A stretch of 64,000 bases of DNA from Centroscyllium fabricii (lineage: Eukaryota): contig JBNRSN020000010.1 of NCBI GenBank assembly GCA_051313645.2, forward strand, positions 47,430,001 through 47,494,000, in the 5' to 3' direction. Of this stretch, positions 2,572 to 56,090 are shown piece after piece. Made by a program: the position numbers and the translations under genes. Under the pieces are notes generated by a model. It was not told the origin of the DNA. It ran no database searches and was given only the letters and a program-made list of their open reading frames with translations. Each line of letters begins with the position of its first letter. Within the stretch, counting starts at the first letter, position 1.

Positions 2572-5500
2572 TGTGGTAATCCACTGTTGTTGTTGTTGTT
2601 GTGGTTGTTGTTATTCACTGTAGTTCACTCTTGCCTGTTGTATATAACCTGCCTGGGCATGCCTCTGCTGACTCCGCCTCTGGCTCCACCCTCATGCCCT
2701 GGTATAAAGGCAACTGCTTTCCAGTCCCCTGGCATTCAGGACCGGTCAACCAGTAGAGGCATGCTCTCGATCTTTAGTAAATAAAAGCCTGTTAGTTACT
2801 TACTTAACTCCAGTCTTTTGGTAGTGATTGATTGCGCATCAATTTTATTTACTAAAAGTTTTTTGCTGAAATGGTTAAAATCCTAAAACCAGAGCGCCTA
2901 GAGTTAGATCCTCAAGCGGTGGATGCGGCTAGAAAATTCGCGCACTGGCTAAAGTGCTTTGAGGCATTCCTGGATGCCTCCAAAACTACCATTGCATCTG
3001 AGACAGACAAGCTACTGGTCCTGCAATCCCGGGTGAATCACCAGGTGTACTCGATCATTGAGGACGCGGCTACTTACAAGGATGCCCTGGACCTCCTAAA
3101 GGAGCAGTACGCATGCCCGGTTAACGAGGTCTACGCCAGGCACCTCCTACTGTCCCATAAACAGCGGCCCGGGGAACCCACGGAAGATTACCTACGGGCG
3201 CTGAGGGTACTCTGCCGGGCCTGTAATTGTAAAGTGGTGTCGGCAAAGGTGTACGCGGAGGACCTAATCCGTGATGCCCTCATCGCAGGTATCCAATCAA
3301 ATTGGAGCAGGACGACCTTGATTTAAAAAAGGCCACAGCCCTCGCACTATCGCTGGACGTGGCCCATCGAAATATGGACGCATACTCAACGGACCACGCA
3401 GCCGCCTCGTGGATGTCGTGGGCACCACCATCCTGGGACACGGTAGGACCGCTATCCTGCGCTGCGCCACCCCCGCCTCATCCCACCAACAGCCCGACTA
3501 CTGCAGCGATGTCCTGGGGCCAGAAGTGCTACTTCTGCGGCCAAGCAAAACACCCCAGGCAACGCTGCCCGGTGAAAGATGCTACATCCTCCAGCTGTAA
3601 GAAGAAGGGGCACTACGCCAGCATCTGTAAGCCGAAATCGACCTCCCACCCCAGCAGTGCCACGTGTGGACCGATCGAGCCGCCATCTTGGACGGCCGCG
3701 TGGGGAACAAGCGGGCTGCCATCTTGGATGCCCTCCACTGCGTGCGGATTATGGGCACCGCTATCTTGGACGCCTTCAACCGCGGACGAACCCGCCTCCC
3801 CCACCGCCTCACCTGATGACGTCAGCGACTCAACGCTCCCTGCACTGGCCTCTGTCACCCTAGACCAATCCAGGCCTCACCAGCTCGCCAGGATCCATGA
3901 TGGACATAGAGGTAAACAGCCACGCCACGAACTGCCTATTTGACTCGGGGAGCACGGAAATTTTTATTCACCCCCACACGGTGCAGCGTTACTCTCTCTC
4001 GGTTCTGCCAGCGCGCCATCGAATTTCTTTGGCCTCCAAGTCCCACACAGCGGATGTCGGCGGCTACTGCATGGTGACCCTGTCGGTGAGGGGCACAGTT
4101 TACAAGGATTTTAAACTTCTGGTTCTGCCCCACCTCTGCCCTGCCGTCCTACTTGGGTTAGACTTTCAGAGCCATCTTAATAGCGTCACGATGGCGTACA
4201 GTGGGCCCCTCCCCGCTCTCACTGTCTGCAGCCAGCAGTTTTTATATTGCCCACCGCGCACCATTTGCAGCCTCTCGACTCTTAAAGTCACCCCTCCTCC
4301 ACTGTTCGCTAACCTCACCCCAGACTGTAAGCCCATCGCCACCAAGAGCAGGCGACACAGTGCTGGGGACAGATATTTTATTAAATCCGAGGTGCAGCGG
4401 CTCCTGAGGGAAGGGGTTATTGAGGCTAGCACCAGCCCCTGGAGAGCCCAACTGGTAGTCATTAAGACTGGCGAGAAACACCGCCTGGTCATCGACTACA
4501 GCCAAACCATATGCAGCTGGACGCATACCCACTTCCCCGCATATCTGACATGGTCAACCAGATTGCACAGTACCGGGTATTCTCCACTATCGACTTAAAG
4601 TCAGCATATCACCAACTCCCTATCCACCCTGAGGACTGCCAGTACACTGCCTTTGAGGCAAATGGCCATCTCTACCACTTCCTTAGGGTTCCTTTTGGCG
4701 TCACCAACGGGGTCTCAGTCTTCCAGCGGGAGATGGACCGAATGATTGACCAGAACGGGCTGCGAGCTACATTCCCGTACTTGGATAACGTTACCATCTG
4801 CAGCCATGACCTGCAGGACCACGATGCCAACCTTAAGAAATTTCTCCGCACAGCCCAACTCCTAAACCTTACTTACAACAAGGAGAAATGCATGTTCCGC
4901 ACAACCTGCCTCGCTATCCTTGGCTGTGTTGTGGAGAACGGGGTCATTGGTCCCGACCACCGACTGCATGCATCCCCTTCTGGAACTTCCCCTTCCCCTT
5001 CCCCACTGCCTCAAGGCCCTGAAGAGATGCCTGGGCTTCTTTTCGTATTACGCCCAGTGGGTCCCTAATTATGCCCATCCACTCATCAAGTCCACCTCTT
5101 TCCCTCTGGCGGCAGAGGCTCGTCTAGCCTTCAGCCGCATGAAGGAAGACATCGCTAAGGCCACAATGCACGCTGTGGATGAATCCACCCCATTCCAAGT
5201 GGAGAGCGATGCGTCTGACTTTGCCCTGGCTGCTACCCTTAACCAGGCAGGGAGACCCATGGCCTTCTTCTCACGAACCCTCCAGGGCTCCGAAATTAGA
5301 CACTCCTCTGGCGAAAAGGAGGCCCAGTCCATTGTGGAAGCTGTGCGGCACTGGAGGCACTACCTGGCCGGTAAACGATTCACCCTGCTCACTGACCAGT
5401 GTTCAGTTGCTTTTATGTTTAATAACAAGCAACAGGGCAAAATCAAAAATGACAAGATATTGAGGTGGAGAATTGAACTTTCCACCTACAATTATGATAT

Positions 5501-7019
5501 CTTGTACTGGCCCGGGAAGCTCAATGAGCCCCCAGATGCTCTATCCCGCGGAACATGTGCCAACGCACAGGTGGATCAACTGCAGTCCCTCCACAATGAC
5601 CTCGGCCACCCGGGGGTCACCAGGTTCTTCCATTTTGTCAAGGCCCGCAACCTATCTTACTCCATCGAGGCGGTCAGGGCCATGACCAGGAACTGCCAAG
5701 TCTGTGCCGAGTGCAAACCGCACTTTTATAGGCCAGACAGGGCACACCTGATAAAGGCCACCTGCCCTTTTGAGCGCCGATTTTAAAGGGCCCCTCCCCT
5801 CCTCTGACCGCAACGTGTACTTCCTCAATATTATTGATGAGTACTCACGTTTCCCTTTTGCCATCCCTGCCCAGACATGACCTCTGCCACGGTCATCAAG
5901 TGTCTGCACAATCTCTTCGCCCTGTTCGGGTTCCCCAGCTATATCCATAGCGACAGGGTTTCTTCGTTTATGAGTGACGAGCTGCGTCAGTACCTGCTCG
6001 CAAGAGGAGTCGCCACGAGCAGGACCACCAGCTACAACCCCCGGGGGAACGGACAGGTAGAGAGGGAGAACGCAACAGTCTGGAAGGCCACCCTGCTAGC
6101 CCTGAAGTCTAGAGGCCTTCCAATCTCTTGCTGGCAAGAAGTCCTCCCTGATGCGCTCCACGCCATCCGATCACTACTCTGTACTGCCACTAACGCTACT
6201 CCTCACGAAAAAATGTTTGCCTTCCCTAGGAAGTCCACATCAGGGACCTCGCTGCCATCATGGCTGACGTCCCCAGGGGCCGTCCTACTCCAGAAGCATG
6301 TGAGGAACCATAAGACGGACCCCCTGGTCGAAAGGGTCCACCTCCTCCACACCAACCCCCAATAGGCCTACGTTGCGTACCCTGACGGGTGGGAGGACAC
6401 AGTCTCCATTCGAGACCTCGCACCCTCGGGAGCCCGAGACCACCATTACCCACCACCCATTAGCATTGCCCCCACCGCTACCCACAATGCACCAGTGTCA
6501 AGACATTTTTCTCTAGACCCTGTAGACGGCATGCTGGGGCCGCGGGACCCATCGCTGAGCGCCCACCAACTCGACGCGGATGATGACGACACGCCGGTGC
6601 TCCGGACCGCTTGGGATTTGCCAGTAGAACCTGCACCACAGCTGGAACCACGATGGTCGCAGCGGCAGACCAGACAGCCCGAAAACTTAATTATACAAAA
6701 TTTTAAGTCACTTCACCCCGCTGGCCTCATTTTTAAACGAGGGGTGAATGTGGTAAACCACTGTTGTTGTTGTTGTTGTGGTTGTTGTTATTCACTGTAG
6801 TTCACTCTTGCCTGTTGTATATAACCTGCCTGGGCATGCCTCTGCTGACTCCGCCTCTGGCTCCACCCTCATGCTCTGGTATAAAGGCGACTGCTTTCCA
6901 GTCCCCGGCATTCAGGACCAGTCAACCAGTAGAGGCATGCTCTCGATCTTTAGTAAATAAAAGCTTGTTAGTTACTTACTTAACTCCAGTCATTTTTGAT
7001 AGTGATTGATTGCACATCA
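2572..7019 (+). mobile_element. Ty3/Gypsy LTR retrotransposon, Mag-like, copy 1 (degenerate)
   Basis: LTRs 2572-2841 and 6749-7019 (about 10 differences); PPT GAGGGGTGAA; left flank GGTAC, right TSD obscured by a small deletion. Confidence 0.95.
2871..6365 (+). pseudogene. Frameshifted gag-PR-RT-RNaseH-IN of copy 1
   Basis: ORF pieces with CCHC knuckle (CYFCGQAKHPRQRC), protease LFDSGS, RT YLDN, RNase H DASDF / EKEA, integrase HSDR and NGQVER. Confidence 0.93.
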
Positions 7020-11953: not shown

Positions 11954-13656
11954 CTGAAATGGAAAGATAATGGAAAACGAATGATTGAACTGAAAGCCCA
12001 AGGCAAATGCACCATTATTAACAAATCTATCAAAATGAATCAGCTGGGAGCTTTGATGAAAATTATTTTTACAGTGAGACTGAGAATAGACCAAGTCTAA
12101 AGTCGGAAAGTAACACCTACATAATTTAAATCAAAGCCAAACATGTCTGTTCTATTATACCTCATGATCACTGCAGGACTATGGTAATCTCATGGGGGCA
12201 GTACAAACAAGCTCAACATTACTGTTTTAGAAGCTTGTTTTAAATCAGCTCCCAAGGCTTAATGGTGAGCCACTAAGGAAATAACAGGATGGGGACAACT
12301 GGAGGCTTCACAGGATCTCCTTCACATTTTATACTAAAAGATACTGACCTGGACAATGACCATGAGGGAAATGGTTTTGGTGGTGTGCTTACTGTGCTAC
12401 ACAGAAAATGTGTTTTTATATATTTATCAAAATAAAGCCTTTGCCTTCAATGGGCCAGTTATGTTTTAAGAATTTTGACTATTTGACCTGGGGGTGCGGG
12501 GGGGGGGGATTTTGGATTCATTTATATTAAGATGTTACTAATAATTTAAATTCAGTTCAAAAGGGGATTCAATCCATACAACACAATCTGCTTCTGGAAT
12601 CTGGATTAGATCCAGGCAAAGTAGCTCGAGAAACACTGGCCTCGATATTAACCCCGCACCACTGGCAGGAGAGGGACAGGGTTCAAGACTTAAATATGGG
12701 GAACGCGTCCCCAACTCGCTCGTTGCCGTTTTTACGGTGGGGATATCGGAGCGATTTCATTAACATATTTAAATCAGGATCCCACAGTGCAATTGTGAAG
12801 GGATTCGCAAAATTTCATATGTTCCCCCCCCTGAAGATTTATTGAATTTATTAAAGAAACCCTGGTGTGACTGTTTTATAAATCCAGGGCCTCTCAAAAT
12901 GGCTGCAGTCGGACACGTGGTCAAGGCCTGCAACATCTGAAATTGGATTCTGCAACAGATTAGCATACTGCGTGTTTAAAACATCTGCAGCAGCTTTTCA
13001 CAGAAGTAGACAGAGGCCTTTTGAATAATGTAGTGAGGCATGCTCAGTTGCATCCTTGCCCTGGAACAAGCCATTAAAGTTGTTTGCTTAAACAATCAAG
13101 GTCCGAGCGGCAGAAGCCAAAGACTGAATTGACCCATCGAGGAGCATTCGAAACAATGGAGAAGCAGTAATGGGACCGATCAGGACAGTTATCGGCCATT
13201 AAAGTAGATGAGCCAAGATCGGGGCCCTTTACGTTTTTGCGCCCAAATTGGACAATGGAACAGACTAATGGGTCGTGAAGAAAACAATTACCAGGAGGGT
13301 ATAACTGAGGCATACCAGTCCCCCTCTCGCTCTCTCTCTTAGCCTCAGCCTGGTGTCCTGTCTGCCTGCTAGCAAACAAGAAGACCGTCCAGTAACTTCG
13401 CAACCACGTGTCGACAGCAGCAGCAGGGCACAGGGGTCAGGCTTCTTCATCTGTTTCACTGGTGAGCATTAATTTTCTGGCCACCACAAGATAACCTAGC
13501 TAAGTGTAAGGGTGGGAATTATAAGGGTATTGTGATAAACTGTATATCACTGTAATACCATGTAACACCTGTATAGCACTGTAATACCATGTAACACCTG
13601 TATGAGATCCCAGGGACATACCTGGCGCCGCCCATGACTCCTCCCCCACTGGAGGA

Positions 13657-13740
13657 GGTATATAAAGGACTGTCCCCATCCCCCGCACTATTCTGGGGAC
13701 AGTCAGCTCGGTTGTGTATCTCTAACGTAGTTAATAAAAG
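13657..13740 (+). promoter_or_regulatory. LTR TATA box and poly(A) signal of copy 2
   Basis: TATATAAAG at about 13659-13667; AATAAA at 13733-13738. Confidence 0.7.
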
Positions 13741-13811
13741 CCTGATTATTATAACCTACTATTCGACTCCGAAGACGTTATTGACGGTTACAATTTTATT
13801 AACTACTTGAA

Positions 13812-16800
13812 ATGGATACTTCAATGTTGAAACCATCAGTGTTCGAGGTTGACCCCCGATCGCCTGGAGCATCAAACGCTTTCTCACACTGGCGAAATGT
13901 ACTGGAAGGATACATTAGAGCCAACGCAGCGGACATAATGACCGAGGAGCAAAAACGACGGCTCCTCCACGCCCGGGTGGGCCCGCAAGTATACTCGATG
14001 ATAGTGGACGCCTCATCATTCCAAGAAGCCCTCAGGACCCTCGACGGGGAATACAATCGGGCGCCAAACAGAGTCCACGCGAGGCACATACTGGCCACCC
14101 GAAAACAACAGGACCACGAATCAAGTGTGCAGTTTCTAAGAGCCCTCAGAACCCTGGCACGGGACTGTGACTGCAGAGCGCAAACGGCCCTAGTACATAT
14201 GGAGAGTCTTATCAGGGATGCCTATGTAACAGGCCTAAAATCGGACTATGCTAGACAAAGACTGCTAGAACAGAATGGCCAGGACTTACAGGCCACTATC
14301 GATTTGGGACACGCGCTAGATAGCGCCTCTACGGATTTATCATCCTATTCTACCAACTACACGGGCCCAGCCCCGCAATCTTGGACAGTACGGGCGCAAA
14401 GACCGTCAGAGGAACTTCTCACAGCGGCCCACGCTAAAGCGAAATGTTACTTCTGTGGTCAACCACAGCATCTAAGACGCAGCTGCCCCGCCAGAGAAGC
14501 GATCTGCTCCAAGTGCGACAAAAAGGGACACTATGCAAAGGTCTGCAAAGGCCCATATGTTAAATCAAGACTGGGCAGCGCTGCCTGTGGAACAAGGGAA
14601 CAGCAGGCTCGCCCATCCCCCACCCAGCAGCACTCAAGGCAGCAGCAGCACCCATCCCCCACTCAACAGTACAGCACATGGCGGCAGCCATCCCAGGAAA
14701 CTGACCTGGAGGACTACTCTCCGGATCAAAATAACTACTCTCCGGACCAAGATAACTACTCTCCGGATCAAGACTTTGGGGAGGACCCGGTACTAGCATC
14801 CATGAGCCTAGACCAGAAGACAATCCAGCCACTGGGGAGATCAATGATGCCGGTGGAAGTTAACGGTGAAGAGGTGGTGTGCCTGTTCGACAGCGGGAGC
14901 ACAGTAAGTTTTGTCCATAAGAATACTGTTAAGCGCCTCTCTCTTAAAGTAATCCCTGCGCGCCAGAGAATATCCATGGCGTCAAAGTCAGAATCCGCTG
15001 ACGTCACCGGGCGCTGTAGTGTAACTCTAAACGTAAAGGGGGCAATCTTTAACAAGTTTAGTTTTTACGTGCTGCCGCAGCTCTGCGCCCCCCTACTCCT
15101 GGGACTGGATTTCCAGTGCCACCTTCAGAGCGTTACGATGGCTTTCGGTGGACCCCTCCCTCCCCTCACGGTCACAAACCGCGGCTCAAAGCGGCATCCC
15201 CAGTATACTACCTGCGGCCTCTCAACCCTTAAGGTTGCCCCTCCATCCCTCTTTGCTAACCTCACCCCAGACTGTAAGCCCGTCGCCACCAAGAGTAGGC
15301 GCTACAGTGCTGGGGACAGGGCATTTATAAAATCCGAGGTGCAGCGCCTCCTAAAAGAAGGGGTCATAGAGGCCAGCAATAGCCCTTGGAGAGCACAGGT
15401 AGTCGTGGTGAAAACCGGGGAGAAGAATAGGATGGTAGTGGATTACAGCCAGACCATAAACCAGTTCACCCAGTTAGATGCCTACCCCCTCCCCCGGATA
15501 GCAGACATGGTGAACCAAATCGCACAGTTTAAAGTATTTTCAACCATCGACCTAAAATCTGCCTATCACCAGCTTCCCATCCGCCCACAGGACCGTCTGT
15601 ATACTGCTTTCGAGGCTGACGGCCGCCTCTACCACTTCCTTAGGGTGCCGTTCGGAGTCACGAACGGGGTCTCGGTCTTCCAAAGGGAGATGGACCGAAT
15701 GGTTGATCGGTACGGGCTGCGAGCGACCTTCCCGTACCTCGATAATGTGACCATCTGCGGCCATGACCAGCAGGACCATGACACCAACCTCCAAAAATTT
15801 CTCCACACCGCCAAAACCCTGAACCTCACGTATAATAAGGAGAAATGTGTGTTTAACACCGGCCGCCTCGCCATCCTCGGCAACGTGGTGGAAAATGGAG
15901 TCATCGGTCCAGACCCGGACCGCATGCGCCCCCTCATGGAGCTTCCCCTCCCCCACTCCCCCAAATCTCTTAAACGGATTTTGGGATTCTTCGCTTATTA
16001 TGCCCAGTGGGTCCCCAATTATGCGGACAAAGCTCGCCCACTATTAAAATCAACCTCTTTCCCACTTTCTGCAGAAGCCAACTCGGCATTCTGCAGAATT
16101 AAAAAGGACATAGCCAAAGCCACGATGCACGCGGTGGATGAGTCCGTCCCATTCCAAGTGGAAAGTGATGCATCTGACTTTGCCCTGGCCGCCACCCTTA
16201 ACCAGGCGGGCAGACCTGTGGCCTTCTTTTCACGTACCCTCCAAGGCCCAGAAACCCGCCATTCCTCAATCGAAAAGGAGGCCCAAGCAATTGTTGAAGC
16301 AGTGCGGCATTGGAAGCACTACCTGGCCGGAAAGCGTTTTACCCTGCTGACTGACCAACGCTCAGTCGCTTTCATGTTCAACAACAAAGAGCGGGGTAAG
16401 ATCAAGAACGACAAAATATTAAGGTGGAGAATTGAACTATCAGCGTTCAATTATGATATTTTGTATCGGCCCGGGAAATTTAACGAACCCCCAGATGCCC
16501 TATCCCGCGGTACCTGTGCCAGCGCACAGGCTGACCGTCTCCAAACCCTTCACAACGACCTCTGCCACCCGGGGGTCACCAGGTTGGTTCACTTCGTGAA
16601 GTCCCGCAACCTCCCCTACTCCATCGAAGAAGTCAAGACCATGACTAGCAACTGCCAGGTCTGCGCGGAGTGCAAGCCGCACTTCTACCGGCCCGACCGG
16701 GCGCACTTAATCAAGGCCACCCGCCCCTTTGAACGACTCAGCGTCGATTTTAAAGGGCCCCTTCCCTCAGCCAACAGGAACGTCTATTTCCTCAACGTTA

Positions 16801-17834
16801 TAGATGAGTACTCCCGTTTCCCCTTCGCCATCCCCTGCCAGGACATGACCTCCGCCACTGTTATCAAAGCCCTCAGTAGCATCTTCTCCCTGTTCGGGTA
16901 CCCGAACTATATCCATAGTGACCGGGGGGCCTCTTTTATGAGCGACGAGCTGCGTCAGTTTCTGCTAGCAAAAGGCATTGCAACTAGCAGGACTACCAGC
17001 TACAACCCCCGGGGGAACGGGCAGGTAGAGAGAGAGAACGCCACGGTCTGGAAAGCCATCCAGTTAGCCCTAAAGTCAAAAGACCTCCCAGTCACCCGAT
17101 GGCAGGACGTTCTCCCTGAAGCACTCCACTCTATCCGGTCCCTATTGTGTACTGCCACTAACGCCACCCCTCACGAAAGACTTTTTGCCTTCCCCAGGAA
17201 GTCAGCTTCCGGGACCTCGCTACCATCGTGGCTGCTATCTCCGGGACCGGTCCTGCTGCGGAAGCATGTGAGGGGACACAAGGCAGATCCCCTAGTCGAA
17301 CGGGTCCACCTCCTGCACGCCAATCCCCAGTACGCTTACATAACGTACCCCGACGGGAGGGAGGACACCGTGTCCATAAAGGACCTAGCCCCAGCAGGGA
17401 TCCCCAAAACCAGCCCGGCCAGGCAGCCCGAGCTCCCAAAACCCCCTGTGACGCCCCCCGAGCCAACGAAGTCGAAGTACACGCTCCGACACGTGGGCCC
17501 AGTACCCCAGTATGTCCACAAGGCACCTGTGCGCAGCACGACCCAGCCCCAAGCCTGGATCCACAATGCGCTCCCCCTAGAGCCAGAGGACGAAAGAGAG
17601 AGCGCGCCCCCTGCTGTCGAAATAAGGGCATCACCGCCACCCGGAAGTGACATAACCACCACCAGCCAACCAGCAGAAAAGGAACAACCGACGCAACCAG
17701 CCACTCCACGACAACGAACACCACAGGCACCGCCAGCACGGCAAGCCACTCCACGACAACGAACACCACAGGCACCACCAGCGCTGCGAAGATCAGCGCG
17801 GACAACGAAACCGCCTGAAAGACTAAACATATAG
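13812..17834 (+). CDS. Single-ORF Gag-Pol polyprotein (1340 aa): Gag with two CCHC knuckles, protease, RT, RNase H, integrase
   Basis: CYFCGQPQHLRRSC and CSKCDKKGHYAKVC; LFDSGS; IDLKSAYHQ, PFGVTNG, YLDN; DASDF / EKEA / TDQ / DALSR; HHCC plus D-D-E (VDFKG, HSDRG, NGQVER). Confidence 0.97.
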   Translation: MDTSMLKPSVFEVDPRSPGASNAFSHWRNVLEGYIRANAADIMTEEQKRRLLHARVGPQVYSMIVDASSFQEALRTLDGEYNRAPNRVHARHILATRKQQDHESSVQFLRALRTLARDCDCRAQTALVHMESLIRDAYVTGLKSDYARQRLLEQNGQDLQATIDLGHALDSASTDLSSYSTNYTGPAPQSWTVRAQRPSEELLTAAHAKAKCYFCGQPQHLRRSCPAREAICSKCDKKGHYAKVCKGPYVKSRLGSAACGTREQQARPSPTQQHSRQQQHPSPTQQYSTWRQPSQETDLEDYSPDQNNYSPDQDNYSPDQDFGEDPVLASMSLDQKTIQPLGRSMMPVEVNGEEVVCLFDSGSTVSFVHKNTVKRLSLKVIPARQRISMASKSESADVTGRCSVTLNVKGAIFNKFSFYVLPQLCAPLLLGLDFQCHLQSVTMAFGGPLPPLTVTNRGSKRHPQYTTCGLSTLKVAPPSLFANLTPDCKPVATKSRRYSAGDRAFIKSEVQRLLKEGVIEASNSPWRAQVVVVKTGEKNRMVVDYSQTINQFTQLDAYPLPRIADMVNQIAQFKVFSTIDLKSAYHQLPIRPQDRLYTAFEADGRLYHFLRVPFGVTNGVSVFQREMDRMVDRYGLRATFPYLDNVTICGHDQQDHDTNLQKFLHTAKTLNLTYNKEKCVFNTGRLAILGNVVENGVIGPDPDRMRPLMELPLPHSPKSLKRILGFFAYYAQWVPNYADKARPLLKSTSFPLSAEANSAFCRIKKDIAKATMHAVDESVPFQVESDASDFALAATLNQAGRPVAFFSRTLQGPETRHSSIEKEAQAIVEAVRHWKHYLAGKRFTLLTDQRSVAFMFNNKERGKIKNDKILRWRIELSAFNYDILYRPGKFNEPPDALSRGTCASAQADRLQTLHNDLCHPGVTRLVHFVKSRNLPYSIEEVKTMTSNCQVCAECKPHFYRPDRAHLIKATRPFERLSVDFKGPLPSANRNVYFLNVIDEYSRFPFAIPCQDMTSATVIKALSSIFSLFGYPNYIHSDRGASFMSDELRQFLLAKGIATSRTTSYNPRGNGQVERENATVWKAIQLALKSKDLPVTRWQDVLPEALHSIRSLLCTATNATPHERLFAFPRKSASGTSLPSWLLSPGPVLLRKHVRGHKADPLVERVHLLHANPQYAYITYPDGREDTVSIKDLAPAGIPKTSPARQPELPKPPVTPPEPTKSKYTLRHVGPVPQYVHKAPVRSTTQPQAWIHNALPLEPEDERESAPPAVEIRASPPPGSDITTTSQPAEKEQPTQPATPRQRTPQAPPARQATPRQRTPQAPPALRRSARTTKPPERLNI

Positions 17835-18714
17835 TCAAAAGAACATTAATTGTATATATTTCGTTAATGAGCACCGTGTAATTAGTTGTTTTTTCTTTTT
17901 CCTTTTTGTACCCCCCGTGTGTTGTTCACCCCACCGTACTTTGGTTTTTAAAGAAGGGGTGAATGTGATAAACTGTATATCACTGTAATACCATGTAACA
18001 CCTGTATAGCACTGTAATACCATGTAACACCTGTATGAGATCCCAGGGACATACCTGGCGCCGCCCATGACTCCTCCCCCACTGGAGGAGGTATATAAAG
18101 GACTGTCCCCATCCCCCGCACTATTCTGGGGACAGTCAGCTCGGTTGTGTATCTCTAACGTAGTTAATAAAAGCCTGATTATTATAACCTACTATTCGAC
18201 TCCGAAGACGTTATTGACGGTTACAGGTATTGCTAAAATTGTGATTTTAGAAATTTTCCCTCGATGTGTCCGTTTCTTCCACCCGTTAAGTGTAAAACTC
18301 TAGTGCATCCATAGCGATTTTTTCTGTATAATACTGTTTATCTTGTAGTCTTAGCACCTGTTAATAAACATTGGTTTTCCTTGCACCAATCCACTGGTCT
18401 GTTCATTTGTCCTTATTACCGCTCGATAAGCCCTGAGGTCAGATCAGGAAGGGGAAAAGCGATTCGAAACCGCACAGCGGGCAGGGCAGCTCAGGAAAAT
18501 ATAACTGGCTGACCTACAGTAAGCCCCTGACACAAAACCCCCTACAATTGGGAGCCTGATTTAAAATTCACTGCTGCCGTGCGAGTTTCCCAGAGGTCAG
18601 AAAACTTGGCAGTGAAAGGGAGATACCGGCTCCACAAGGTAAGTGCCTTTTCCAGCACTCCTTGTGGGCCTGGAAGAACAGGAGTGCACTCCCCGGGCCC
18701 TCAAGGAAGCCTGT

Positions 18715-37979: not shown

Positions 37980-40900
37980 TGTGGTAACCGTTATTGTACA
38001 TAGTTTTACCACTGCAATATTGTCGCCAATATTGGCTGTATATGTTATCATGTTTACAACACTGTCGTGGAGCCAGGCCAGCCACACTACTAACTCCTCC
38101 CCCAGGTGAGGCCCTTTATAGGTGAGGACTGACCGGGCTCCCTCATTCTGTTCTGGATGTTCGTTCGGAGTATAGCTCCAAAGTTAGTCAATAAAAGCCT
38201 GTAGTTTAAGGTCACTACTCGTCCAGGTCTTTATTGAGAGAATTGACGATACGTCAATTTTATTGACTAAGAAAATTTGAAATGGAGAGCAGTGCGGTAA
38301 AGCCAGAGAAGCTGGACACCAGTCCACAGGACCCAGCCGCCGCCACTACGTTCGAACACTGGTTCGGTCTCCTGGAGGCCTATATGGACGCCGCCAAGGC
38401 TACAACCGACGGGAACAAACTGCAGGTTCTCCGGTCTAGGATCTCCAGCCGAGTATTCTCCCTAATCCGAGACGCCAAAACCTACCCAGTGGCAGTGAAA
38501 AAACTGCGAAAATGCTATGAGCACCCGGTCCACTCGGTCTACGCCAGACATGTGCTCACGACCAGACCACAACTACCGGGTGAGACAAATGAACAATTTG
38601 AGCAAGCACTCCAGGCCCTGGTACGGGTCTGTGGCTGCCAACCACGGACAGCAGAGGAGGAGGCGAATCTCCTCGTCCGTGATGCCTACGTAACAGGCCT
38701 AAGGTGCGTTGAAGCCCGCCAGCGCCTGCTTGAGAAAGACTCTTTGACCTTAGAGGAGGCGATCTCCATATCGAACTCAGTAGAAGGGGCACGCAACAAG
38801 CTGCAGGCGTACAGCGGCACAAACCCGCAGGTCTACGACGTGTGGGCCGCGCCACAACGGGCCCAGGCCTGGGCAGCACCACAACGGGTCGAGACCCCCA
38901 CGATGGCAGCGACAGCCGCAAAGGCAGACAAACGGTGTTACTTCTGCGGTCAGTGACTGCATCCACGAGCGAGATGCCCAGCGAAGACCGCGACCTGCGA
39001 GAGGTGTTCCAAAAAGGGACACTATGCGAAGGCCTGCAGACCAGCACCAGCAGCGCTCATCTCCAGGTACAACAGCGCAGCCTGTGAAAGCTCCGCCAGG
39101 CCTCAGGTAAGCTGCAATAGCAGCGCGATCCAGCGACGGTCCGGCGGTAGAAGAAAAGCGCCCCCATCTCCCACCCTGATGCGGCAAAGGCCGGCTGCAC
39201 CCACGGCACGCCAAGCTCAGCCACGGCCGGCCATGCACGACCCCCCAACGCCAGCAGCAGCACACCCAGCGCGGCCCACTGCGGGCGAACCACGGGCGCC
39301 GCCAACCCAACCACCGTGGCTCACTGCGTGCGAACAACGGGCACCGCCAACCCAGCCACCGCGGCCCGCTGCGTGTGAACCACGGGCGCCGCCAGCGCGC
39401 TCACAGCAGTCAGCTGCGTGCGAACCACGGGCGCCGCCATCTTGTCTCCAGCGGCCCACCGTGTGCGACCCCTCGGCGCCGCCATCTTGTCTCCAGCGGC
39501 CCGCCATGTGCGTCCCCTCGGAGCCGCCATCTTGTCTCCAGCGCCCCGCCATGTGCGAGCCACGGGCGCCGCCATCTTGTGTACAGCCCCAACCAGCAGG
39601 GGGCCCCCACACACAAATGCACACTTCGGCCTCAGCCATACCTAAAGTCGACCAGGCTAGGCCACACACCCTATCGAACTCGATCATGCCGATCAAAATT
39701 AACGGCCATGTTACTAATTGCCTGTTCGACACTGGAAGCACAGAGAGCTTCATCCACCCCGATACAGCGCAGCGCTACGGACTGCAGATCCTGCCCATGC
39801 GCAACCAAATCTCCCTTGCTTCACAGTCCCACACCACGGACGTCACCGGCTACTGCTCCGTCACGCTCACAGTCAAGGGTTGTGTGTACCGTAACTTTAA
39901 GTTGTACACCCTCAAGCAGTTGTGTGCCCCAGCCTTACTAGGTCTGGATTTCCAATGCCACCTCAAGAGCGTGACAATGGAGTTCGGTGGGACCTTTCCC
40001 CACCTCACCGTCAGTAGCCGGGACAGTCCCTTCCCAAAGCGGAGCCCGGCCTGCGGCCTCTCCACACTGAAAATTGACCCCCCCTCACTGTTCGCCAATC
40101 TCGACCCCAACTGCAAGCCTATTGCTACTAAGAGTCGGCGGTATAGTGTGGGGGATCGTACATTTATCAGGTCGGAGGTCGGGCGTATGCTGAAGGAGGG
40201 GATAATTGAAGCCAGCACCAGCCCCTGGCGGGCCCAGGTTGTAGTGGTGAAGACTGGCGAGAAACAGCGGCTGGTTATCGATTACAGCCAGACTATTAAC
40301 CGCTACACCGGGCTCGACGCCTAACCCCTCCCCCGCATCTCGGAAATGGTTAACCAGATCGCCCAATATAAGGTGTTCTCCACGATCGACCTTAAGTCGG
40401 CGTATCACCAACTCCCGATCCGGAAAGCCGACCGTCCGTACACCACCTTCGAGGCGAACGGTCGGCTCTACCACTTCCTCCGGGTCCCCTTCGGCGTGAC
40501 CAACGGAGTGTCAGTGTTCCAACGGGAGATGGACCGTATGGTTGACCAGAACGGGTTGCGGGCCACCTTCCCTTAACTGGACAACGTGACTATCTGCGGC
40601 CATGAACAGCAGGACCATGATGCCAATCTGGCCAAATTCCTTGACACGGCGGAAAAACTGGACCTTACGTATAACAAGGACAAATGTGTCTTTAATACAG
40701 ACCGGCTCACCATCCTCGGATACGTGGTGGAGAATGGGGTCCTCGGCCCCGACCCACAGCGTATGCGCCCCTTACAAGAACTGCCCCTACCTCACAACCC
40801 CAAAGACTTGAGGAGATGCCTAGGATTTTTCTCCTATTACGCACAATGGGTCCCACAGTTCACGGACAAGGCTGGACCACTCCTCAAGGCTGCCGTCTTC

Positions 40901-42857
40901 CCCCTCTCGGTAGAAGCCCAAACGGCATTCGCCCGGATAAAGGAAGACATTATCAAGGCGACCATGCACGCCGTTGATGAATCCATCCCTTTCCAGGTGG
41001 AGAGTGACGCTTCGGACTTTGCCCTTGCCGCCATCCTGAATCAGGCAGGCAGGCCGGCCCGTAACGTTTTTCTCCCGCACCTTACAGGGACCTGAAATTC
41101 GCCACTCTGCAGTGGAAAAGGAGGCCCAGGCCATCGTGGAGGCCGTGCGCTACTGGCATCATTACCTGGCCGGTAAGCATTTTACCCCTCTCACCGACCA
41201 ACGGTCGGTGGTGTTTATGTTTAATAATAAACAAAAGGGTAAGATCAAGAATGATAAGATCCTGCGGTGGCGGATCGAGCTCTCGACTTACGAGTACGAC
41301 ATTCTTTACCGACCAGGTAAACTCAATGAACCCCCGGACGCACTGTCCAGGGGAACGTGCGCCAGTGCCCAGCTAGACCGGCTGAAGGATCTCCACGATC
41401 GCCTCTGTCACCCGGGTGTCACCAGACTCGCCCACTTCGTTAGATCCCGTAGCCTCCCCTACTCCATCACGGAGATCAAGGCTATGACCCGAGAGTGCCC
41501 GGTCTGCGCCGAGTGCAAACCCCAATTTTTCCGGCCAGACACGGCGCACCTCATTAAGGCCACCCGCCCCTTTGAACGTCTAAGCGTGGACTTCAAAGGC
41601 CCTCTCCCCACCACCGACCGCAACTCATACTTCCTCACGGTCGTAGATGAGTTCTCCCGCTTCCCCTTCGCCTTCCCCTGCCCAGATATGACGAGCGCAA
41701 CGGTGATAAAACACTTCACCACGCTGTTCGCCATTTTCAGTCTCCCCAGCTACATTCATAGCGACCGGGGGGTCATCGTTCATGAGCGATGAACTGCGTC
41801 AGTTTCTGCTCCAGAAAGGGGTTGCCTCGAGCAGAACGACCAGTTATAACCCCCGGGGGAACGGCCAGGTAGAAAGGGAGAATGGGATCATCTGGAAGGC
41901 GGTCACCCTGGCTCTGAAGTCCAGAGGCCTTCCAGTGGCCCATTGGCAGGCAGTCCTCCCAGACGCGCTGCATTCGATACGCTCTCTGTTATGTACGGCC
42001 ACTAACGCCACCCCTCATGACTTGATGTTTTCCTTTCCCAGGAAGTTGACTTCGGGGACAGCTCTTCCTCCATGGCTCACGACACCGGGGCCGGTCTTCC
42101 TTAGAAAACATGTCCGTGGCCACAAGACCGACCCCCTGGTGGACAAGGTGCAGCTCCTGCATGTGAATCCCCAATACGCCTACGTGCAGTTCCCGGATGG
42201 GCACGAGGACACCGTCTCCATCAGGGACCTAGCGTCCGCCGGGAGCACCACAGCAGAGCCACTGGTCGGGCAGCAGCCCGCCCAGCCACGTTATTTTGAA
42301 CACCCCCTGCATCTACAGTGGCCTCCGAGGTATCCAGAGCCCCAGCCGTGGCCAGCCCAAGACCACCATTCCGATGGCTCGGATCAACCGATACCACCAG
42401 CATCCGAAGTTTCGGCACCAGCGCCACTGTCACCACCACCGGACTCGAGCGGGACGGACCATAATGAACTTCTGCCAGAGCCCCGGCGGTCCTCCAGACA
42501 GACGCGACCGCCGGACAAACTTATAATGAACTGCTCTGTCCATTCACCCCGCCGGACTTAAATTTTCAAGAAGGGGTGAATGTGGTAACCGTTATTGCAC
42601 ATAGTTTTACCACTGCAATATTGTCGCCAATATTGGCTGTATATGTTATCATGTTTACAACACTGTCGTGGAGCCAGGCCAGCCACACCTCTAACTCCTC
42701 CCCCAGGTGAGGCCCTTTATAGGTGAGGACTGACCGGGCTCCTTCATTCTGTTCTGGATGTTCGTTCGGAGTATAGCTCCAAAGTTAGTCAATAAAAACC
42801 TGTAGTTTAAGGTCACTACTCGTCTAGGTCTTTATTGAGAGAATTGACGATACGTCA
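37980..42857 (+). mobile_element. Ty3/Gypsy Mag-like copy 3, full length, several stops and frameshifts
   Basis: 277-bp LTRs 37980-38256 and 42581-42857 (about 6 differences); TSD CCATC; ORF pieces 38282-42561 with all domains. Confidence 0.96.
39230..39590 (+). repeat. Coding minisatellite of about 42 bp in the Gag-protease linker of copy 3
   Basis: Repeated GCGTGCGAACCACGGGCGCCGCCATCTTGT (ACEPRAPPSC). Confidence 0.85.
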
Positions 42858-47588: not shown

Positions 47589-50326
47589 TAAGGGAATCAA
47601 GGAATATGGGGATAGAGTGGGAAGGTGGAGTTGACGTAGTAGATCAGTCATGATCTTATTGAATAGCGGAGCAGGCCTAAGAGGTCGTATAGCCTACTCC
47701 TGCTCTTATTTCTTAGGTTCCTATGTTCTACCTCCTTCTAGCGACTGACAATAAGAGGGGATTGGTGGTTGAATGGCCTCCCTTATGACAGCAGGGGTAT
47801 CTAGCCCAAACTGATAGAAGTACTGACAAAAAATATCTAAATAAAGTGGATGAGTTTACGTTAATGACTGTACTCTTCCTCCCCCACCCTCCAAGCCAAT
47901 TCCCATACTGTTGCCTTACAGAGGGAAAGTGCAAACCATAAATCAAAATACCTCTCGTTTCAAGAGGTCAGATCCCTTCAAATATCTCTCAGCACAATTA
48001 AAAGTAAATACGCTACAGGGACTGCAGCAAACAACAGGAGCACTATGTTGCAATAGGCTGCCATTGGGAACATTTGTGTTTGTCATTAATGGATTTCATT
48101 ATTAATATTTGCAAGTGTTGAGAGCTATACTGCTAAAGAAATAGGTATTAATGAAATATACTGAGTAAACATAGAAGATAGGAGTAGGAGTAGGCCATTC
48201 GGCCCTTCGAGCCTGCTCCGCCATTCAATGCGATCATGGCTGATCATCCAAACTCAGTACCCTGTCCCTGCCTTCTCCCCATATCCCTTGATCCCTCTAG
48301 CCTTAAGAAATACATCCAGCTCCTTCTTGAATATATTCAATGAACTAGCCTCCACCGCCCTCTGTGGTAGAGAATTCCGCAGGTTCACCACTCTCTGGGT
48401 GAAGAAATTCCTCCTCATCTCTGTCCTAAATGAGTTACCCCTTATCCTTAGACTATGACCCCTGGTTCTGGACTCTCCGCTCATCGGGAACATTCTTCCT
48501 GCATCAAGTTTGTCCAGACCAGTTAGAATTTTATACGTTTCGATGAGCTCCCCTCTCAATCTTCTAAACTCCAGAGAGTACAAACCCAGTCAACCCAGTC
48601 TCTCCTCATATGTCAATCCTGCCATCCCAGGTATCAGCCTGGTGAATCTTCTCTGCACTCTCTCCATGGCAAGAACGTCCTTCCTTAGATAAGGAGACCA
48701 AAATTGCACACAGTACTCAAGGTGTGGCATCACCAAGGCCCTGTACAACTGCAGCAAGACCTCCCTGTTCCTGTCCCCGAACCCTTTCGCTATGAAGGCC
48801 AACATACCATTTGCCTTCTTAACCGTCTGCTGCACCTGCATGCTCACCTTCAGTGACTGGTGCACAAGGACACCCAGGTCTCGTTGTACTTCCCCTTCTC
48901 CCAATCTATTGCCATTCATATAATAGTCGGCATTTCTGTTTTTGCCCCCAAAGTGGATAACCTCGCATGTATCCACATTACACTGCATCTGCCACGTCTC
49001 AGCCCACTTGCCCAACCTGTCCAAATCATCCTGGAGCTTCCTGGTATCCTCCTCGCAGCACACACGCCCTCCCAGCTTTGTGTCATCTGCAATCTTGGAG
49101 ACATTACATTTAGTTCCCTTTTCTAAATCATTAATGTATATTGTGAATACCTGGGGTCCAAGGACTGATCCCTGTGGTACCCCACTAGTCACTGCCTGCC
49201 ACTCGAAAAAAGACCCATTTACTCCTACTCTCTGCTTTCTGTCCGGCAACAAATTCTCAATCCAAGTCAATACCTTGCCCCCAATCCAATGTGCCCTAAC
49301 TTTACATGCTAATCTCTTGTGCGGGACCCTGTCGAACGCCTTCTGAAAGTCTAAGTACACCACATCTACTGGTTCTCCCTGATCAATTTTCCCAGTTACA
49401 TCCTCAAAAATTTCCAGTAGATTAGTCAAGCACTATTTACCTTTCGTGAATCCATGTTGACATTGTCCGATCCTGTCACTGTTTTCCAAGTGCTCTGCTA
49501 TTACATCTTTTATAATGGACTCTAACATTTTCCCCACTACTGATGTCAGGCTTACCGGTCTGTAATTCCCCGTTTTCTCTCTACCACCTTTTTTGAATAG
49601 TGGGGTAACATTAGCTACCCTCCAATCCCTGGTTACTGTTTCAGATTCCATTGAATGTTGGAAGATGATCAGCAATGTATCTACTATTTCTAGGGCCACT
49701 TCCTTATGTACCCTAGGATGTAGATTGTCAAGCCCTGGGGATTTATTGGCCTTCAGTCCCATCAATTTCCCGAACACCATTTCCCTACAAATACTGATTT
49801 CTTTCAGTTCCTCCCTTTCATCAGATCTGATGGGGGACAAATTGGTCAGCCAACACTTTGTGGCGCTAACCCGGGTGATGCGCTAAAAATGCTGATATTG
49901 ACCTGCATCGCCCATTATGGGGGGCGGGCGGTGAATCGGGCAGGCTGCCTCGCTCTTGGTGCGAGGCAGCCAAATATCCGTGTGGTAACCGTGTATAACC
50001 ACTGTACATAGTTGCTGGTCTACCTGTATAATATTGTAGGCCAGGTCAGCCACACCCCTAACACCTCCCCTCAGGTCGGAGTATATAGGTGAGTGCAGAC
50101 CTGCCCCCATGCATTCTTCACCTTGACCTCATCAGGAGACCAGCTCCATTCTTAGTTAATAAAAGCCTGTCGTTTAGGTAACTACTCGTCTTTGTATGAT
50201 TAATTGACGATACGTCAATTTTATTAACTAATTTTTAAAACATGGAGAGCAACGCAGTGAGACCGGATCGCCTTGATATAAATCCTCAGGCGCCCGATGC
50301 TGCTAACGATTTTGAACACTGGTTTG

Positions 50327-53300
50327 TGATGCACAATCAATCACTGCCAGTCGATGGTCAGATGCAATCGAGGCTTTCATTAACATAGAACTGGACACAG
50401 GTCTGATGATCTTCCAAGCCAAAGTGAAAGCACTCAGGTGTGCAGGCACTCTTATACTCTGTGGGCGGAGCCTGGGGAGGAAGCCAAAGAGCGGGGTCCT
50501 CCCAGGTGACTCCTCCCCGACAAGAAGGCAAGGAGTTGCAATCTTATAGTACAGTACAGTACAGTACAGCAATTACAAGGAGGGGACACAAGGGGGAGAC
50601 AATATACAATATATACAAGTTAGTGGTTTACCACATTCACCCCGTTTTAAAAAATGACGGCGGGGGTGAATAATCTTTAGTTCAAAGGTTAAGTCTTTCT
50701 GGTGGTCTGGTTTGCCGAAGCGACCGTCGCAGTGCCGGTCTTGGAGCTGATCCCAGGGTTGCCGGCCGTGCTGACTCCAGCGGTTGTAGAACTTCTGGCT
50801 GTGTGGTGTCCGCCAAAGCCGGTGGTGGTGCAGTCGTGGAGGGGTGGGTGTTGTGCATCGTTCGGTCCCGAGTCTCCAGCGTGCCGTCTATAGGAGCTGT
50901 AAAAAAACCAGACAACAGCGTCTCGTGAAGGGGAACGGTGGTGGGGGTGGGGAGGCCGGTGGTCTCTGGGGCACCCGAGGGCGCAAGATCTCTAATGGAG
51001 ACTGTGTCCTCCCGCCCGTCTGGGAACACCACGTAGGCGTACTGGGGGTTGGCGTGGAGGAGCTGTACCCTTTCAACCAGGGGGTCTGTCTTGTGGGCCC
51101 TCACGTGTCTCCGGAGCAAGACAGGCCCGGGGGACGTCAGCCATGCTGGCAGCGAGGTCCCAGATGCAGACTTCCTGGGGAAGCAAAACATCCGCTCGTG
51201 AGGGGTGGCATTGGTGGCGGTGCAGACCAGTGACCTAATGGAGTGGAGGGCATTTGGGAGGACCTCCTGCCAGCGGGAGACGGGGAGGACCCTGGACCGT
51301 AGGGCGAGGCTGATGGCCTTCCAGACAGTACCGTTCTCCCGCTCAACCTGCCCATTGCCCCGGGGGTTGTAGCTAGTGGTTCTGCTTGTTGCAACCCCTT
51401 TGGATAGCAGGTACTGGCGCAGCTCGTCACTCATGAACGACGACCCCCTGTCTGTGTGGATATAGTTAGGGAAGCCGAACATGGTGAAGATGCTGTGCAG
51501 ACACCTGATGATCGTGGCTGTGGTCATGTCAGGACAAGGGATTGCGAAAGGGAAACGTGAGTACTCGTCAATGACGGTGAGGAAGTACCCGTTTCTGTTG
51601 GTGGAGGGGAGGGGGCCCTTGAAATCGACGCTCAGTCATTCGAAGGGGCTGGTGGCCTTGACCAAACTGGCTCTGTCTGGCCGAAAAGAATTTGGTTTGC
51701 ACTCCGCACAGGTCGGGCAGTGCCTGGTGATGTCCCAGACGTCCGAAACGGAGTAGGGTAGGTTGCGGGACTTCACGAAGTGGAAGAGCCGGGTGACTCC
51801 GGGGTGGCAGAGGTCGTTGTGGATGGACTGCAGTCTATCCACTTGTGCACTGGCACAGGTTCCACGGGATAGTGCGTCCGGGGGCTCATTGAATTTACCG
51901 GGCTGGTATAAGATATCGTAATTATAGGTGGACAGTTCAATTCTCCACCGTAAGATTTTGTCATTTTTTATTTTACCCCGCTGGTTATTACTAAACATGA
52001 AAGCCACCGACCGCTGGTCAGTGAGCAGGGTAAATCTTCTACCGGCCAGGTAGTGTCTCCAGTGCCGCACCGCTTCCACGATGGCCTGGGTCTCCTTCTC
52101 CACTGATGAATGCCTGATTTCGGGGCTGTGGTGGGTGCGGGAGAAGAAGGCCACCGGCCGTCTAGACTGGTTGAGAGTGGCGGCCAGGGCAAAATCAGAG
52201 GCATCACTTTCCACCTGGAATGGGGTGGATTCGTCCACGGCGTGCATGGTCGCCTTGGCGATGGCTGCCTTGATGCTGTCGAAGGCTGCACGAGCCTCGT
52301 TCGACAGGGGAAAAGAGGTTGATTTCAGGAGAGGGCGGGCTCTGTCCACGTACTGGGGGACCCATTGGGCGTAGTATGAGAAGAAGCCCAGGCACCTTTA
52401 TAGGGGCTTTGGGCTCTGGGGGAGGGGAAGTTCCATGAGGGGGCGCATGCCTTCGGGGTCCGGGCCGATGACCCCGTATGCCACGAAGCAGCCCAGGATG
52501 GTGAGGCGGGTGGTGCGGAAAACACATTTTTCCTCATTGTAGGTGAGGTTGAGGAGCTTGGCGGTGTGGAGGAATTTGGCCAAGTTCGCATCATGGTCCT
52601 TCATGTCGTGGCCACAGATGGTGACGTTGTCGAGGTAGGGGAAGGTAGCCAGCAGCCCGTTTTGGTCCACCATCCAGTCCATCTCCCGTTGGAAGACCGA
52701 CACACCATCAGTGACTCCAAAAGGGACCCTCAGAAAGTGGTAGAGACGGCCATTCGCCTCAAAGGCAGTGAATTGGCAGTCTCCAGGGTGGATGGGGAGC
52801 TGATGGTACGCCGACTTCAGGTCAATTGTAGAAAACACCCTGTACTGCGCAATCTCATTGACCATGTCTGAGATGCGAGGCAGGGGGTATGCGTCCAATT
52901 GAGTGAAGCGGTTGATCGTCTGGCTGTAGTGGATGACCAGGCGGTGTTTGGTGCTGGTCTTGACGACTACAACCTGGGCTCTCCAGGGCCTGTTGCTGGC
53001 CTCGATGATCCCCTCCCTCAGTAGCCGCTGGACCTCAGACTTAATGAACAGTCTGTCCCCCGTGCTGTAGCGCCTGCTTTTTGTAGCTATGGGCTTACAG
53101 TCGGGGGTGAGGTTAGCAAATAATGAGGGAGGGGCGACTAGGAGGGTCGAAAGGCTGCAAACAGTGTGGGGCTCACGCTGTGAAAACTGCTGGCTACAGA
53201 CGGTCAACGGGGGGAGGGGGCCACCGTATTTAATGATGACGCTGTCGAGGTGGCTTTGAAAGTTGAGACCTAATAGGACGGCAGCGCAGAGATGGGGGAG

Positions 53301-54943
53301 GACCAACAGTTTAAAACGGTTATACACAGTACCCCGCACCTTAATTGTAACCACACAGAGACCACCGACTTCCGCCGTTGCAGTGTTGGAAGCCATTAGA
53401 ATCCGCTGGCGCACGGGGAGTACCGTGAGGGAAAGCCTCCGTACCGTGTCCGGGTGTATAAAACTTTCGGTACTCCCCGAGTCAAATAGGCAGTTAACCG
53501 CACGGCCGTTTACCTCAATGTCCATGATGGATCGCGCAAGTTGGTGGGGTCGGGTCTGGTCCAGCATGATCGATGCGAGTTGTAGGAGTTGCAGGTCGTC
53601 TCGTGGATCACTCCCTGTAGTTAAGCGTGGTGGCGTCCATCGTTCACATGCGGAGGAGTAGGCCTCAAGATGGCCGGCTGATGCAAAATGGCTGCCTCCA
53701 TGTTCACCGTGTGGAGGAGGGGGGGAGGGTGTAAGATGGCCGCCCGATCCAAAATGGCCACCCCCACGGTTGCCACGTGGGGGTGAGTGCTGGCTGCCCC
53801 AAAATTGCCGCTCTGTGGGAGCACACGCAGCGCTGCTGGGGGGGGGGGGGGGGAGGGTTTGCTCTTGCAGACTGCTGCGTAGTGTCCCTTCTTTTTGCAG
53901 CTGGAGCACAGTGCATCTTTTGCAGTGCATCGCTGCCTGGGGTGTTTAGTCTGCCCGCAGAAATAGCACTTCTGGGGTCGGGCTGCTGCCGCGGACGTGA
54001 GTGGGGGCGCAGCGGCGGTCGTCTCGCCCGCCCACAGGGTCTGCGCCCGCGACCCTTGCTGGTCGTAAGCCTCCCCCTGGATGTGCGCCGCCTCCAGCGA
54101 TTCCGCTAGCGTTTCAGCAGCCACCAAGTCTATATTGCTCTACTCCAGCAGTCGCTGGCGGGTATATGTGGGCCTGAGTCCCGCCACCAGGGCATCCCTG
54201 AGGATTATGTCCTGGTGCTGGTTGGCCATCAACGGCTTACAATTGCAGGTGCACATGAGCGTTCGCAACGCTGCCAAAAAGTTTGTGAAAGACTCACCAG
54301 GCTGCTGTTTCCTGTTCAGTAGGAGATGCCTGGCATAGATTTCGTTCGACGGGGCGGTAAAACGAGATTTTAAAGTGTCCAGGGCATTCCTGTAAATCGT
54401 TTCGCCCTCGATTAAACTGAAGAGCTCAGGGCTGACCAGAGCTCGCAGGACTTTGAGCTTCCGCTGTTCTGTGTCCACGGTCAGGCGGGATTCTTCGAGG
54501 AAGGACTCGAAGCAGGAGACCCAGTGCGTGAAGGCCCGCTCAGCGCCTGCCGATCGCGGGACGAGGTCGAGTTTGTCAGGTCGCAGTAACTTTTCCTTCT
54601 TCATGGAAAGTTTTTTTGTAAAAACTATGTTAATAAAATTGATGCACAATCAATCACTACCAGTCGATGGTCAGATGCAATCGAGGCTTTTATTAACATA
54701 GAACTGGACACAGGTCTGATGATCTTCCAAGCCAAAGTGAAAGCACTCAGGTGTGCAGGCACTCTTATACTCTGTGGGCGGAGCCTGGGGAGGAAGCCAA
54801 AGAGCGGGTTCCTCCCAGGTGAGTCCACCCCGACAAGAAGGCAAGGAGTTGCAATCTTATAGTACAGTACAGTACAGCAATTACAAGGAGAGGACACAAG
54901 GGGGAGACAATATACAATATATACAAGTTAGTGGTTTACCACA
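50327..54943 (-). mobile_element. Ty3/Gypsy Mag-like copy 5, full length, nested in copy 4
   Basis: LTRs 54640-54943 and 50327-50635; TSD GTTTG (50322-50326 / 54944-54948); disrupted ORF 54604 to 50682. Confidence 0.96.
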
Positions 54944-55799
54944 GTTTGGCCTGGTCGAGGCCTACATGAAGGCCGTAAAGGCGATGAGTGATGAGGACAA
55001 ACTCCAGGTACTCTCATCACGGATCAGCGGCCGGGTGTACTCCTTTATCCGCGGCCTCAAGACTTACGAGGAAGCGGTCAAGAAATTGAAGGACAGCTAC
55101 ATGCGCCCGGCCCACTCGGTCTATGCCAGGCGTGTTCTGGCGACCAGAAGGCAACGACTCGGTGAGTCCAATGAACAATTTCTGCTAGCGCTCCAAGCCC
55201 TCGCACGGGCCTGCGACTGCAAGGCAAGGACAGCGGAGGAAGAGGCGAACCTCCTAATCCGCGATGCCTATGTTGCAGGACTCAGATCCAGCCAGGCCCG
55301 CCAACGGCTGCTGGAGCAGGACGCACTGTCGCTTGAGTCCGCGATAACTCTTTCTAATGCGGTGGACGGAGCGCTTCGGAAGATGGACGCGTAAAGGGAC
55401 CACAACTCACACGCGGGCACCCCTGACCCCTGGGCGACACATGGACGGGCCGAGGCCCCCACGACAGCAGCGGCGACCGCGAAGGGGCACAGATGCTACT
55501 TCTGCGGCTAAGAAAAGCACCCGCGGGCACAGAGCCCCACGAAGAATGCGACCTGCGCACGGTGCGCAAAGAAGGGACGCTACGCTAAGGCGTGCAAATC
55601 CAGCCCGGCATCCACCTCCAGACCCAACAGCGCGGCCTGTGAGAACAACGACGCCACTCCGTGGCTACAGGTACGGTGTTGCAGCGCGACCCAGCAGCGG
55701 TCAGCCGGGGGTAAATCGCAGGTGCCTCCATCCCCTTTAACTATACGGCGGAGGCCGGCCGCGCGCACGGCACAGGCGCAGCCATCACAAACGTGACTG

Positions 55800-56090
55800 C
55801 GACCGGCCATGTGCGACACCCCGGCGCTACCATCTTGCCCACAGCGGTCGGCCGCGTGCGAACCACGGGCGCCGCCATGTTGTCCACAGCGGTCGGCCGC
55901 GAGTGAACCACGGGCGCCGCCATCTTCTCCACAGCGGCCAGCCGCGTGCGAACCATGGGCGCCACCATCTTGTCCACAGCAGTCAGCCGCGTGCGAACCA
56001 CGGGCGCCGCCATCTTGTCCACAGCAGCCGGACACATGCAAATCGCCGGCGCCGCCATCTTCCGAGCGGCCATCTTGCCAACCGCCCCGG
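55800..56090 (+). repeat. 42-bp coding minisatellite in copy 4
   Basis: Repeated GCCGCGTGCGAACCACGGGCGCCGCCATCTTGTCCACAGC. Confidence 0.88.

Follow-up and report, generated by a model that had tools for sequence, protein, structure and literature searches.

The 64-kb stretch of DNA analyzed here (the window) contained an intact Ty3/gypsy LTR retrotransposon, copy 2, at 13531-18225 on the forward strand. Its 5′ LTR (13531..13792, 262 bp, TG...CA) and 3′ LTR (17964..18225) were identical at 262/262 bases, and the element was flanked by a 5-bp target site duplication (TSD), GGTAT, at 13526-13530 and 18226-18230. Between the LTRs were a single open Gag-PR-RT-RNaseH-IN frame (13803..17834, forward strand) of 1343 codons stop-to-stop, with its first ATG at 13812, and a polypurine tract (PPT), read directly at 17950..17959 on the forward strand, 4 nt upstream of the 3′ LTR. 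Two Cys/His zinc knuckles were read directly in Gag, and no env was found in the frame. Pfam matches followed the gypsy order PR-RT-RH-IN (residues 350-437, 537-691, 757-882, and 973-1069), and all of the catalytic residues checked in PR, RNase H, IN, and RT were retained, except RT position 648. The pol order, paired TG...CA LTRs, TSD, PPT, and Ty3-type RT all place copy 2 in Ty3/gypsy. Among solved RTs the top match by sequence and by fold was Ty3 RT (PDB 4OL8), on which a predicted RT-RNase H model (pLDDT 90) superposed with Z 31.5 and an rmsd of 3.6 over 356 aligned positions, the next chain giving Z 30.2; the closest named proteins were from sharks and rays, which makes a cartilaginous fish the probable host. 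The LTR of copy 2 had a 29-bp unit duplicated near its 5′ end, and an 11-bp perfect inverted repeat (about 13668-13696) directly downstream of a TATA-like box.

Four further elements were found in the window. Copy 1 (2572..7019, forward strand) belonged to an older family and had frameshifts and stops, and copy 3 (37980..42857, forward strand) also had stops, with LTRs 271/277 identical and the TSD CCATC. Copy 4 (49981..57422, forward strand, 5′ LTR 49981-50217) had its gag split by copy 5 and continuing at 54944, with homology stopping after RT; copy 5 (50327..54943, minus strand), nested in this gag in the opposite orientation, was flanked by the TSD GTTTG. The earlier note treated the five elements as copies of one another, all with an Asn in the RT motif; the Asn was present in all, but their RT amino-acid identities of 74-84% make them five diverged families rather than copies of one family. 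At about 980-1280 an LTR 87% identical to those of copy 3 apparently stands as a solo LTR, and frames with RVT_1 matches at 9677-11665 (minus strand) and 28604-29626 come from another repeat family with many copies, which is probably a LINE.

The RT motif of copy 2 (15735..15746, forward strand, residues 645-648 of the stop-to-stop frame) reads YLDN, with the first Asp retained and the second replaced by Asn, in gap-free alignment with the YLDD of Ty3 RT (E 8.5e-51). Of the canonical three-aspartate RT site (D...YxDD), copy 2 has D583 and D647, with Asn at 648; the catalytic Asp583 of motif A (IDLKSAYHQ, codon at 15549..15551, forward strand) was found in all five elements. Direct reading bore out the five codon strings claimed beforehand: TACCTCGATAAT at 15735 (copy 2), TACTTGGATAAC at 4778 (copy 1, YLDN, 4778-4789), TAACTGGACAAC at 40574 (copy 3, Asn codon retained at 40583-40585), TACCTGGCCAAC at 57078 (copy 4, YLAN, 57078-57089), and TACCTCGACAAC on the minus strand at 52637-52626 (copy 5, YLDN). 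The Asn codon was AAC in four elements and AAT in one.

Motif state was pooled over 389 relatives binned by RT identity, the rest of each bin being other letters or uncovered. At identities of at least 75% all 21 relatives read DN; at 60-75% there were 45 DN and 3 DD of 49, at 50-60% 134 DN and 49 DD of 189, at 40-50% 22 DN and 36 DD of 60, and below 40% all 70 read DD. The best 120 full-length homologs comprised 94 YxDN and 26 YxDD. State was uniform inside each of six inspected 90% clusters (YIDN 12, YLDN 10, YLDD 9, YLDN 6, YLDD 8, and YIDN 6, counting the members that cover the motif among those listed). Four full-length YIDN polyproteins with four Pocillopora (coral) locus ids were 99.2-99.5% identical, which suggests recent amplification in a second phylum, although some may be haplotype duplicates. 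For all 10 pairs of the five window families, all of them Asn, RT dS was 0.70-2.71 and dN/dS 0.047-0.123, as obtained by simple codon counting with stop codons skipped and dS near saturation; these low ratios indicate that selection acted on the RT during the time it had Asn. Judged from the sequences, the Asn of this lineage is inherited, and the purifying selection, the intact young copy, and the four coral polyproteins make it most likely that the lineage has been mobile with a two-aspartate site, as had been proposed.

The tree (FastTree) included 255 of 271 proteins, 16 being left out as short or with missing coverage, and the trait column was removed before building. Every N row belonged to a single animal clade on a long stem, 190 rows in size (SH 100), and all 65 outgroup rows were DD. 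Within the clade the third-carboxylate site was N in 120 rows, D in 69, and Y in 1, while D647 was kept in 190/190 rows and D583 in 187/190 and neither was ever Asn, so the site is constrained to D or N. The 255-row tree required at least 19 changes, of which 10 were forced by starred branches, compared with 84 for shuffled labels. A 40-row subset, chosen with the first tree in view so that D/N sister pairs were represented, was analyzed with IQ-TREE; 13 changes were counted, 9 of them forced, with bootstraps giving 12-13, and grouping all N rows in one clade was rejected (p-AU 8.6e-5). Basal branches were mostly D and D rows were nested in N groups, so gains and reversions are both likely. 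Mapping YLDN on an RT phylogeny, a check proposed in the earlier note, thus confined N to one clade, with at least 9-10 switches on well-supported branches. Its description of Asn as running across the lineage holds for the window-bearing subclade, which includes the shark and ray sequences (N in 15/15 rows), but not for the wider clade with its many Asp rows. The site is best described as a D/N toggle in a putatively permissive clade, rather than a single fixed novelty. Three clade members (P0013, P0038, and P0162) are labelled at NCBI as bacterial MAG proteins, likely reflecting host contamination of the bins; P0162 matches the window RT at 97% identity across 105 residues.

The RT of copy 2 probably copies the element with only two aspartates, in a clade where both Asp and Asn are tolerated at the third position. 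Homology to Ty3 RT suggests that the catalytic metal is bound by Asp583 and Asp647, with residue 648 in an accessory role that an amide could fill. The tolerance may reflect a sequence background acquired once, in the stem of the clade, instead of a partner residue changing with each switch. Candidates for such a permissive background are the residues of RT and RNase H that distinguish the clade from the outgroup. In RT these are NGV for NAP in motif B (G622/V623 for Ala/Pro), DYS with a one-residue insertion for DYR (S549 for Arg), Q532 for Pro, T650, and G653; in RNase H they are TDQ for TDH (Q852 for His), A794/A796 for Gly/Gly, and an insertion at 866-870. They are common in D and N members alike, and are many, on one long branch, with none singled out. 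In P0001, residues 851-870 (window about 16353-16412) span the clade-specific RNase H TDQ and an inserted KIKND stretch. No compensating residue among the top hits listed tracked D/N after kinship was considered, in 1032 residue-by-column tests on 154 core rows that had low power. The best candidate, I/V at 634, had a raw Fisher p of 2e-9, and an independent-pairs sign test gave a median p of 0.25 on 9 pairs only.

The primer binding site (PBS) of copy 2 (13794..13806, forward strand) is a 13-nt perfect complement of the LTR segment 13727-13739 (forward strand), which contains AATAAA followed by GCCT, and is predicted to act as a self-primer site. Perfect PBS-LTR complements of 13-14 nt were found in all five window elements (0/300 shuffles each), and the two partner sequences co-varied between families. 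The complementary LTR segment overlapped a poly(A)-type hexamer, usually followed by GCCT (copies 1-5 and loci L002, L003, L009, L019, and L036). The PBS-LTR stem occurred in the MFE fold, though the z-score for the region as a whole was a weak -1.33, and a tRNA scan of the 64-kb window found 0 genes.

The PBS survey considered 21 metagenome loci, of which 17 were scored and 4 unscorable. Seven of the 10 YxDN loci had a perfect PBS-LTR complement of at least 10 nt (10-18 nt when the window elements are included). The fold-back was also present in YLDD loci, with 15 nt in L036 and 12 nt in L019 (0/300 shuffles each), and, with mismatches, 9 nt in L062 and 6 nt in L058; L004, a YLDD locus from another branch, had 9 nt in a looser scan. 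Three loci with a damaged or unaligned motif had complements of 5, 9, and 16 nt. All 11 loci placed on the tree lay inside the 190-row clade. These results argue that the fold-back PBS is a clade trait common to D and N members, although thinly represented in the D state, for which the data comprise one family plus L004. Minus-strand priming by the element's own RNA is predicted for D and N members, and the arrangement is likely a self-priming system with a priming site away from the extreme 5′ end of the transcript. The YMDN element L009 (1-584 and 4113-4731) has a flanking repeat that includes coding 3′ sequence, which suggests a tandem array sharing LTRs.

In Tf1 the primer is the first 11 nt of the transcript. 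In Tf1/sushi chromoviruses the PBS is described as pairing with the 5′ part of the element itself and not with a tRNA (PMC6317226). Copy 2 resembles them in this self-complementarity of the PBS to its own 5′ RNA, primer cleavage being a prediction, but shows no chromodomain match (Pfam), and its pairing LTR segment takes in the AATAAA, roughly 65 nt downstream of the TATA-like box. Ty3 (4OL8) shares with copy 2 the PR-RT-RH-IN order, TG...CA LTRs, PPT, and TSD, and differs from it in that the third carboxylate of copy 2 is Asn and its PBS is self-complementary instead of a tRNA site.

The same substitution has been engineered in Ty1 and Ty3. For Ty3, D151N and D213N are reported to abolish polymerase activity, and D214N to keep activity with lower processivity, all three being lethal for transposition (PMC5371799). 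For Ty1, D211N is reported to keep polymerase activity in vitro, with kpol down 223-fold, and to abolish transposition, 5-10% of which was restored by RNase H suppressors (PMC2148107); the earlier note had described the Ty1 change correctly, as one that keeps polymerase activity and blocks transposition. While the laboratory mutants Ty1 D211N and Ty3 D214N lose transposition, the natural window families are under purifying selection. Many independent D/N sister families that are closely related (for example P0117/P0119, P0113/P0115, and P0031/P0043), together with intact young N elements, provide natural matched pairs; with them, natural enzymes could be used to ask what makes the third carboxylate, dispensable in vitro, essential for Ty1 and Ty3 transposition.

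Several other explanations of the Asn were weighed. Post-insertion decay or an assembly error might be suspected because four of the five window elements have stops or frameshifts and two have further damage inside the motif. Nevertheless, Asn occurs in the intact copy with identical LTRs, both Asn codons are found across families with near-saturated dS, and most of the best full-length homologs are YxDN. The motif states of homologs, including YLDN in every relative at 75% identity or above, and the selection data refute this explanation, whose probability is practically nil; the claim that an Asn found in all five elements, as both AAT and AAC, is not post-insertion decay was therefore upheld. 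An Asn that is mildly deleterious or neutral and recurs by mutation pressure (CpG across GAC GAC), with weak selection for reversion, is a somewhat unlikely explanation. One G-to-A transition converts the Asp codon to Asn, GAC GAC was found in 20 of the 27 metagenome loci reading Asp-Asp, and GAC precedes the Asn codon in 29 of 31 loci. The outgroup, however, faces the same mutation and yet is uniformly DD, both on the tree (65/65) and below 40% identity (70/70), and other conserved Asp columns in the clade have 0-6 Asn. Mutation pressure would account for the arising of N, not for its tolerance, and is compatible with a permissive site.

It is also unlikely that Asn is co-adapted with the self-complementary primer, such that a slower or altered site is needed for self-priming or tolerated only with it. 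The perfect complements in all window elements and in 7/10 YxDN metagenome loci are consistent with such a link, as is the position of every YxDN element inspected inside the clade, where self-priming could be part of the permissive background; RNase H mutations are moreover reported to rescue Ty1 D211N in part (PMC2148107), and the RNase H of the clade is altered. The co-adaptation suggested in the earlier note was not supported, since YLDD members of the clade (L036, L019, L062, L058, and L004) share the fold-back and the site flips back and forth, with Asp returning repeatedly within N groups. The comparison of self-complementary PBS with motif state, a further check proposed there, was carried out and found the fold-back in both states, which speaks against strict co-adaptation. 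Still less probable, and indeed very unlikely, is that YxDN elements have a deficient polymerase and depend on YLDD relatives to mobilize them in trans. The block of Ty1 and Ty3 transposition reported for D-to-N changes (PMC2148107, PMC5371799) would favor it, and contigs sharing one dataset prefix include families of both the YLDN and the YLDD type. On the other hand, purifying selection on RT among N families is strong, the N elements retain both remaining aspartates along with their RNase H and IN sites, and none of the 21 closest relatives reads YxDD. In a comparison aimed at YLDD variants in the host species, 16,226 and 13,511 contig pieces matched a 341-bp stretch in two runs, with 72 rows of differences beyond those listed; a narrower stretch gave no differences among those listed. 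No relative was confirmed among viral contigs.

A permissive background with a D/N toggle is the preferred reading; the transposition losses of the Ty1 and Ty3 mutants weigh against it, so true tolerance would have to be explained by something such as the candidate background residues. A broader proposal, held only tentatively and rather doubtful as a whole, is that an old animal-wide clade, when it arose, both remodelled its RT and RNase H and took up a poly(A)-signal fold-back primer, making the third carboxylate dispensable. The RNase H changes would then parallel, in nature, the suppressors of Ty1 D211N, and the D/N sister families would be a ready series for studying the role of the third carboxylate.

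A published account gives the YVDN motif as a hallmark of nematode belpaoviruses, among them an intact Atlas element with identical LTRs (PMC9094657), and the motif was noted in Cer7-12 in a 2005 account that left the retention of activity undetermined (PMC554778). These nematode Bel/Pao elements (Cer7-12, Atlas virus) have the Asp-to-Asn change at the same motif position and belong to a different superfamily; unlike them, the window clade toggles between D and N and the window element lacks env. Membership of copy 2 in Bel/Pao was rejected, since it has two Gag knuckles, against the three Cys-His knuckles described for Sinbad (PMC554778), and its RT groups with gypsy-type RTs. The YLDN of the window and the YVDN of Bel/Pao are most likely convergent, as inferred from trees built without Bel/Pao RT. 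No report of YxDN in Ty3/gypsy was found in the largely open-access literature searched. RTs almost always have Asp at this position, but the novelty implied by the earlier note is diminished by the published YVDN of nematode Bel/Pao. An LTR element with YxDN is not unprecedented, and what sets this case apart is that the site has switched repeatedly between D and N in a single gypsy clade spread across animals. For annotation, YxDN should not be taken as evidence of a dead or non-autonomous element.

Saci2/lennie, with a reported 4-bp TSD and tRNA-Leu PBS (PMC12471100, PMC4558846), was excluded as a match by the 5-bp TSDs of copies 2, 3, and 5 and by the PBS.

Copy 2 may be akin to the Mag lineage, which has twin zinc knuckles and a 5-bp TSD, or to Cigr-1 of Ciona, a compact single-frame element, in size and layout; either would be a candidate name for the clade. 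The Cigr clade has been described in molluscs and annelids (PMC6238403, PMC8556966).
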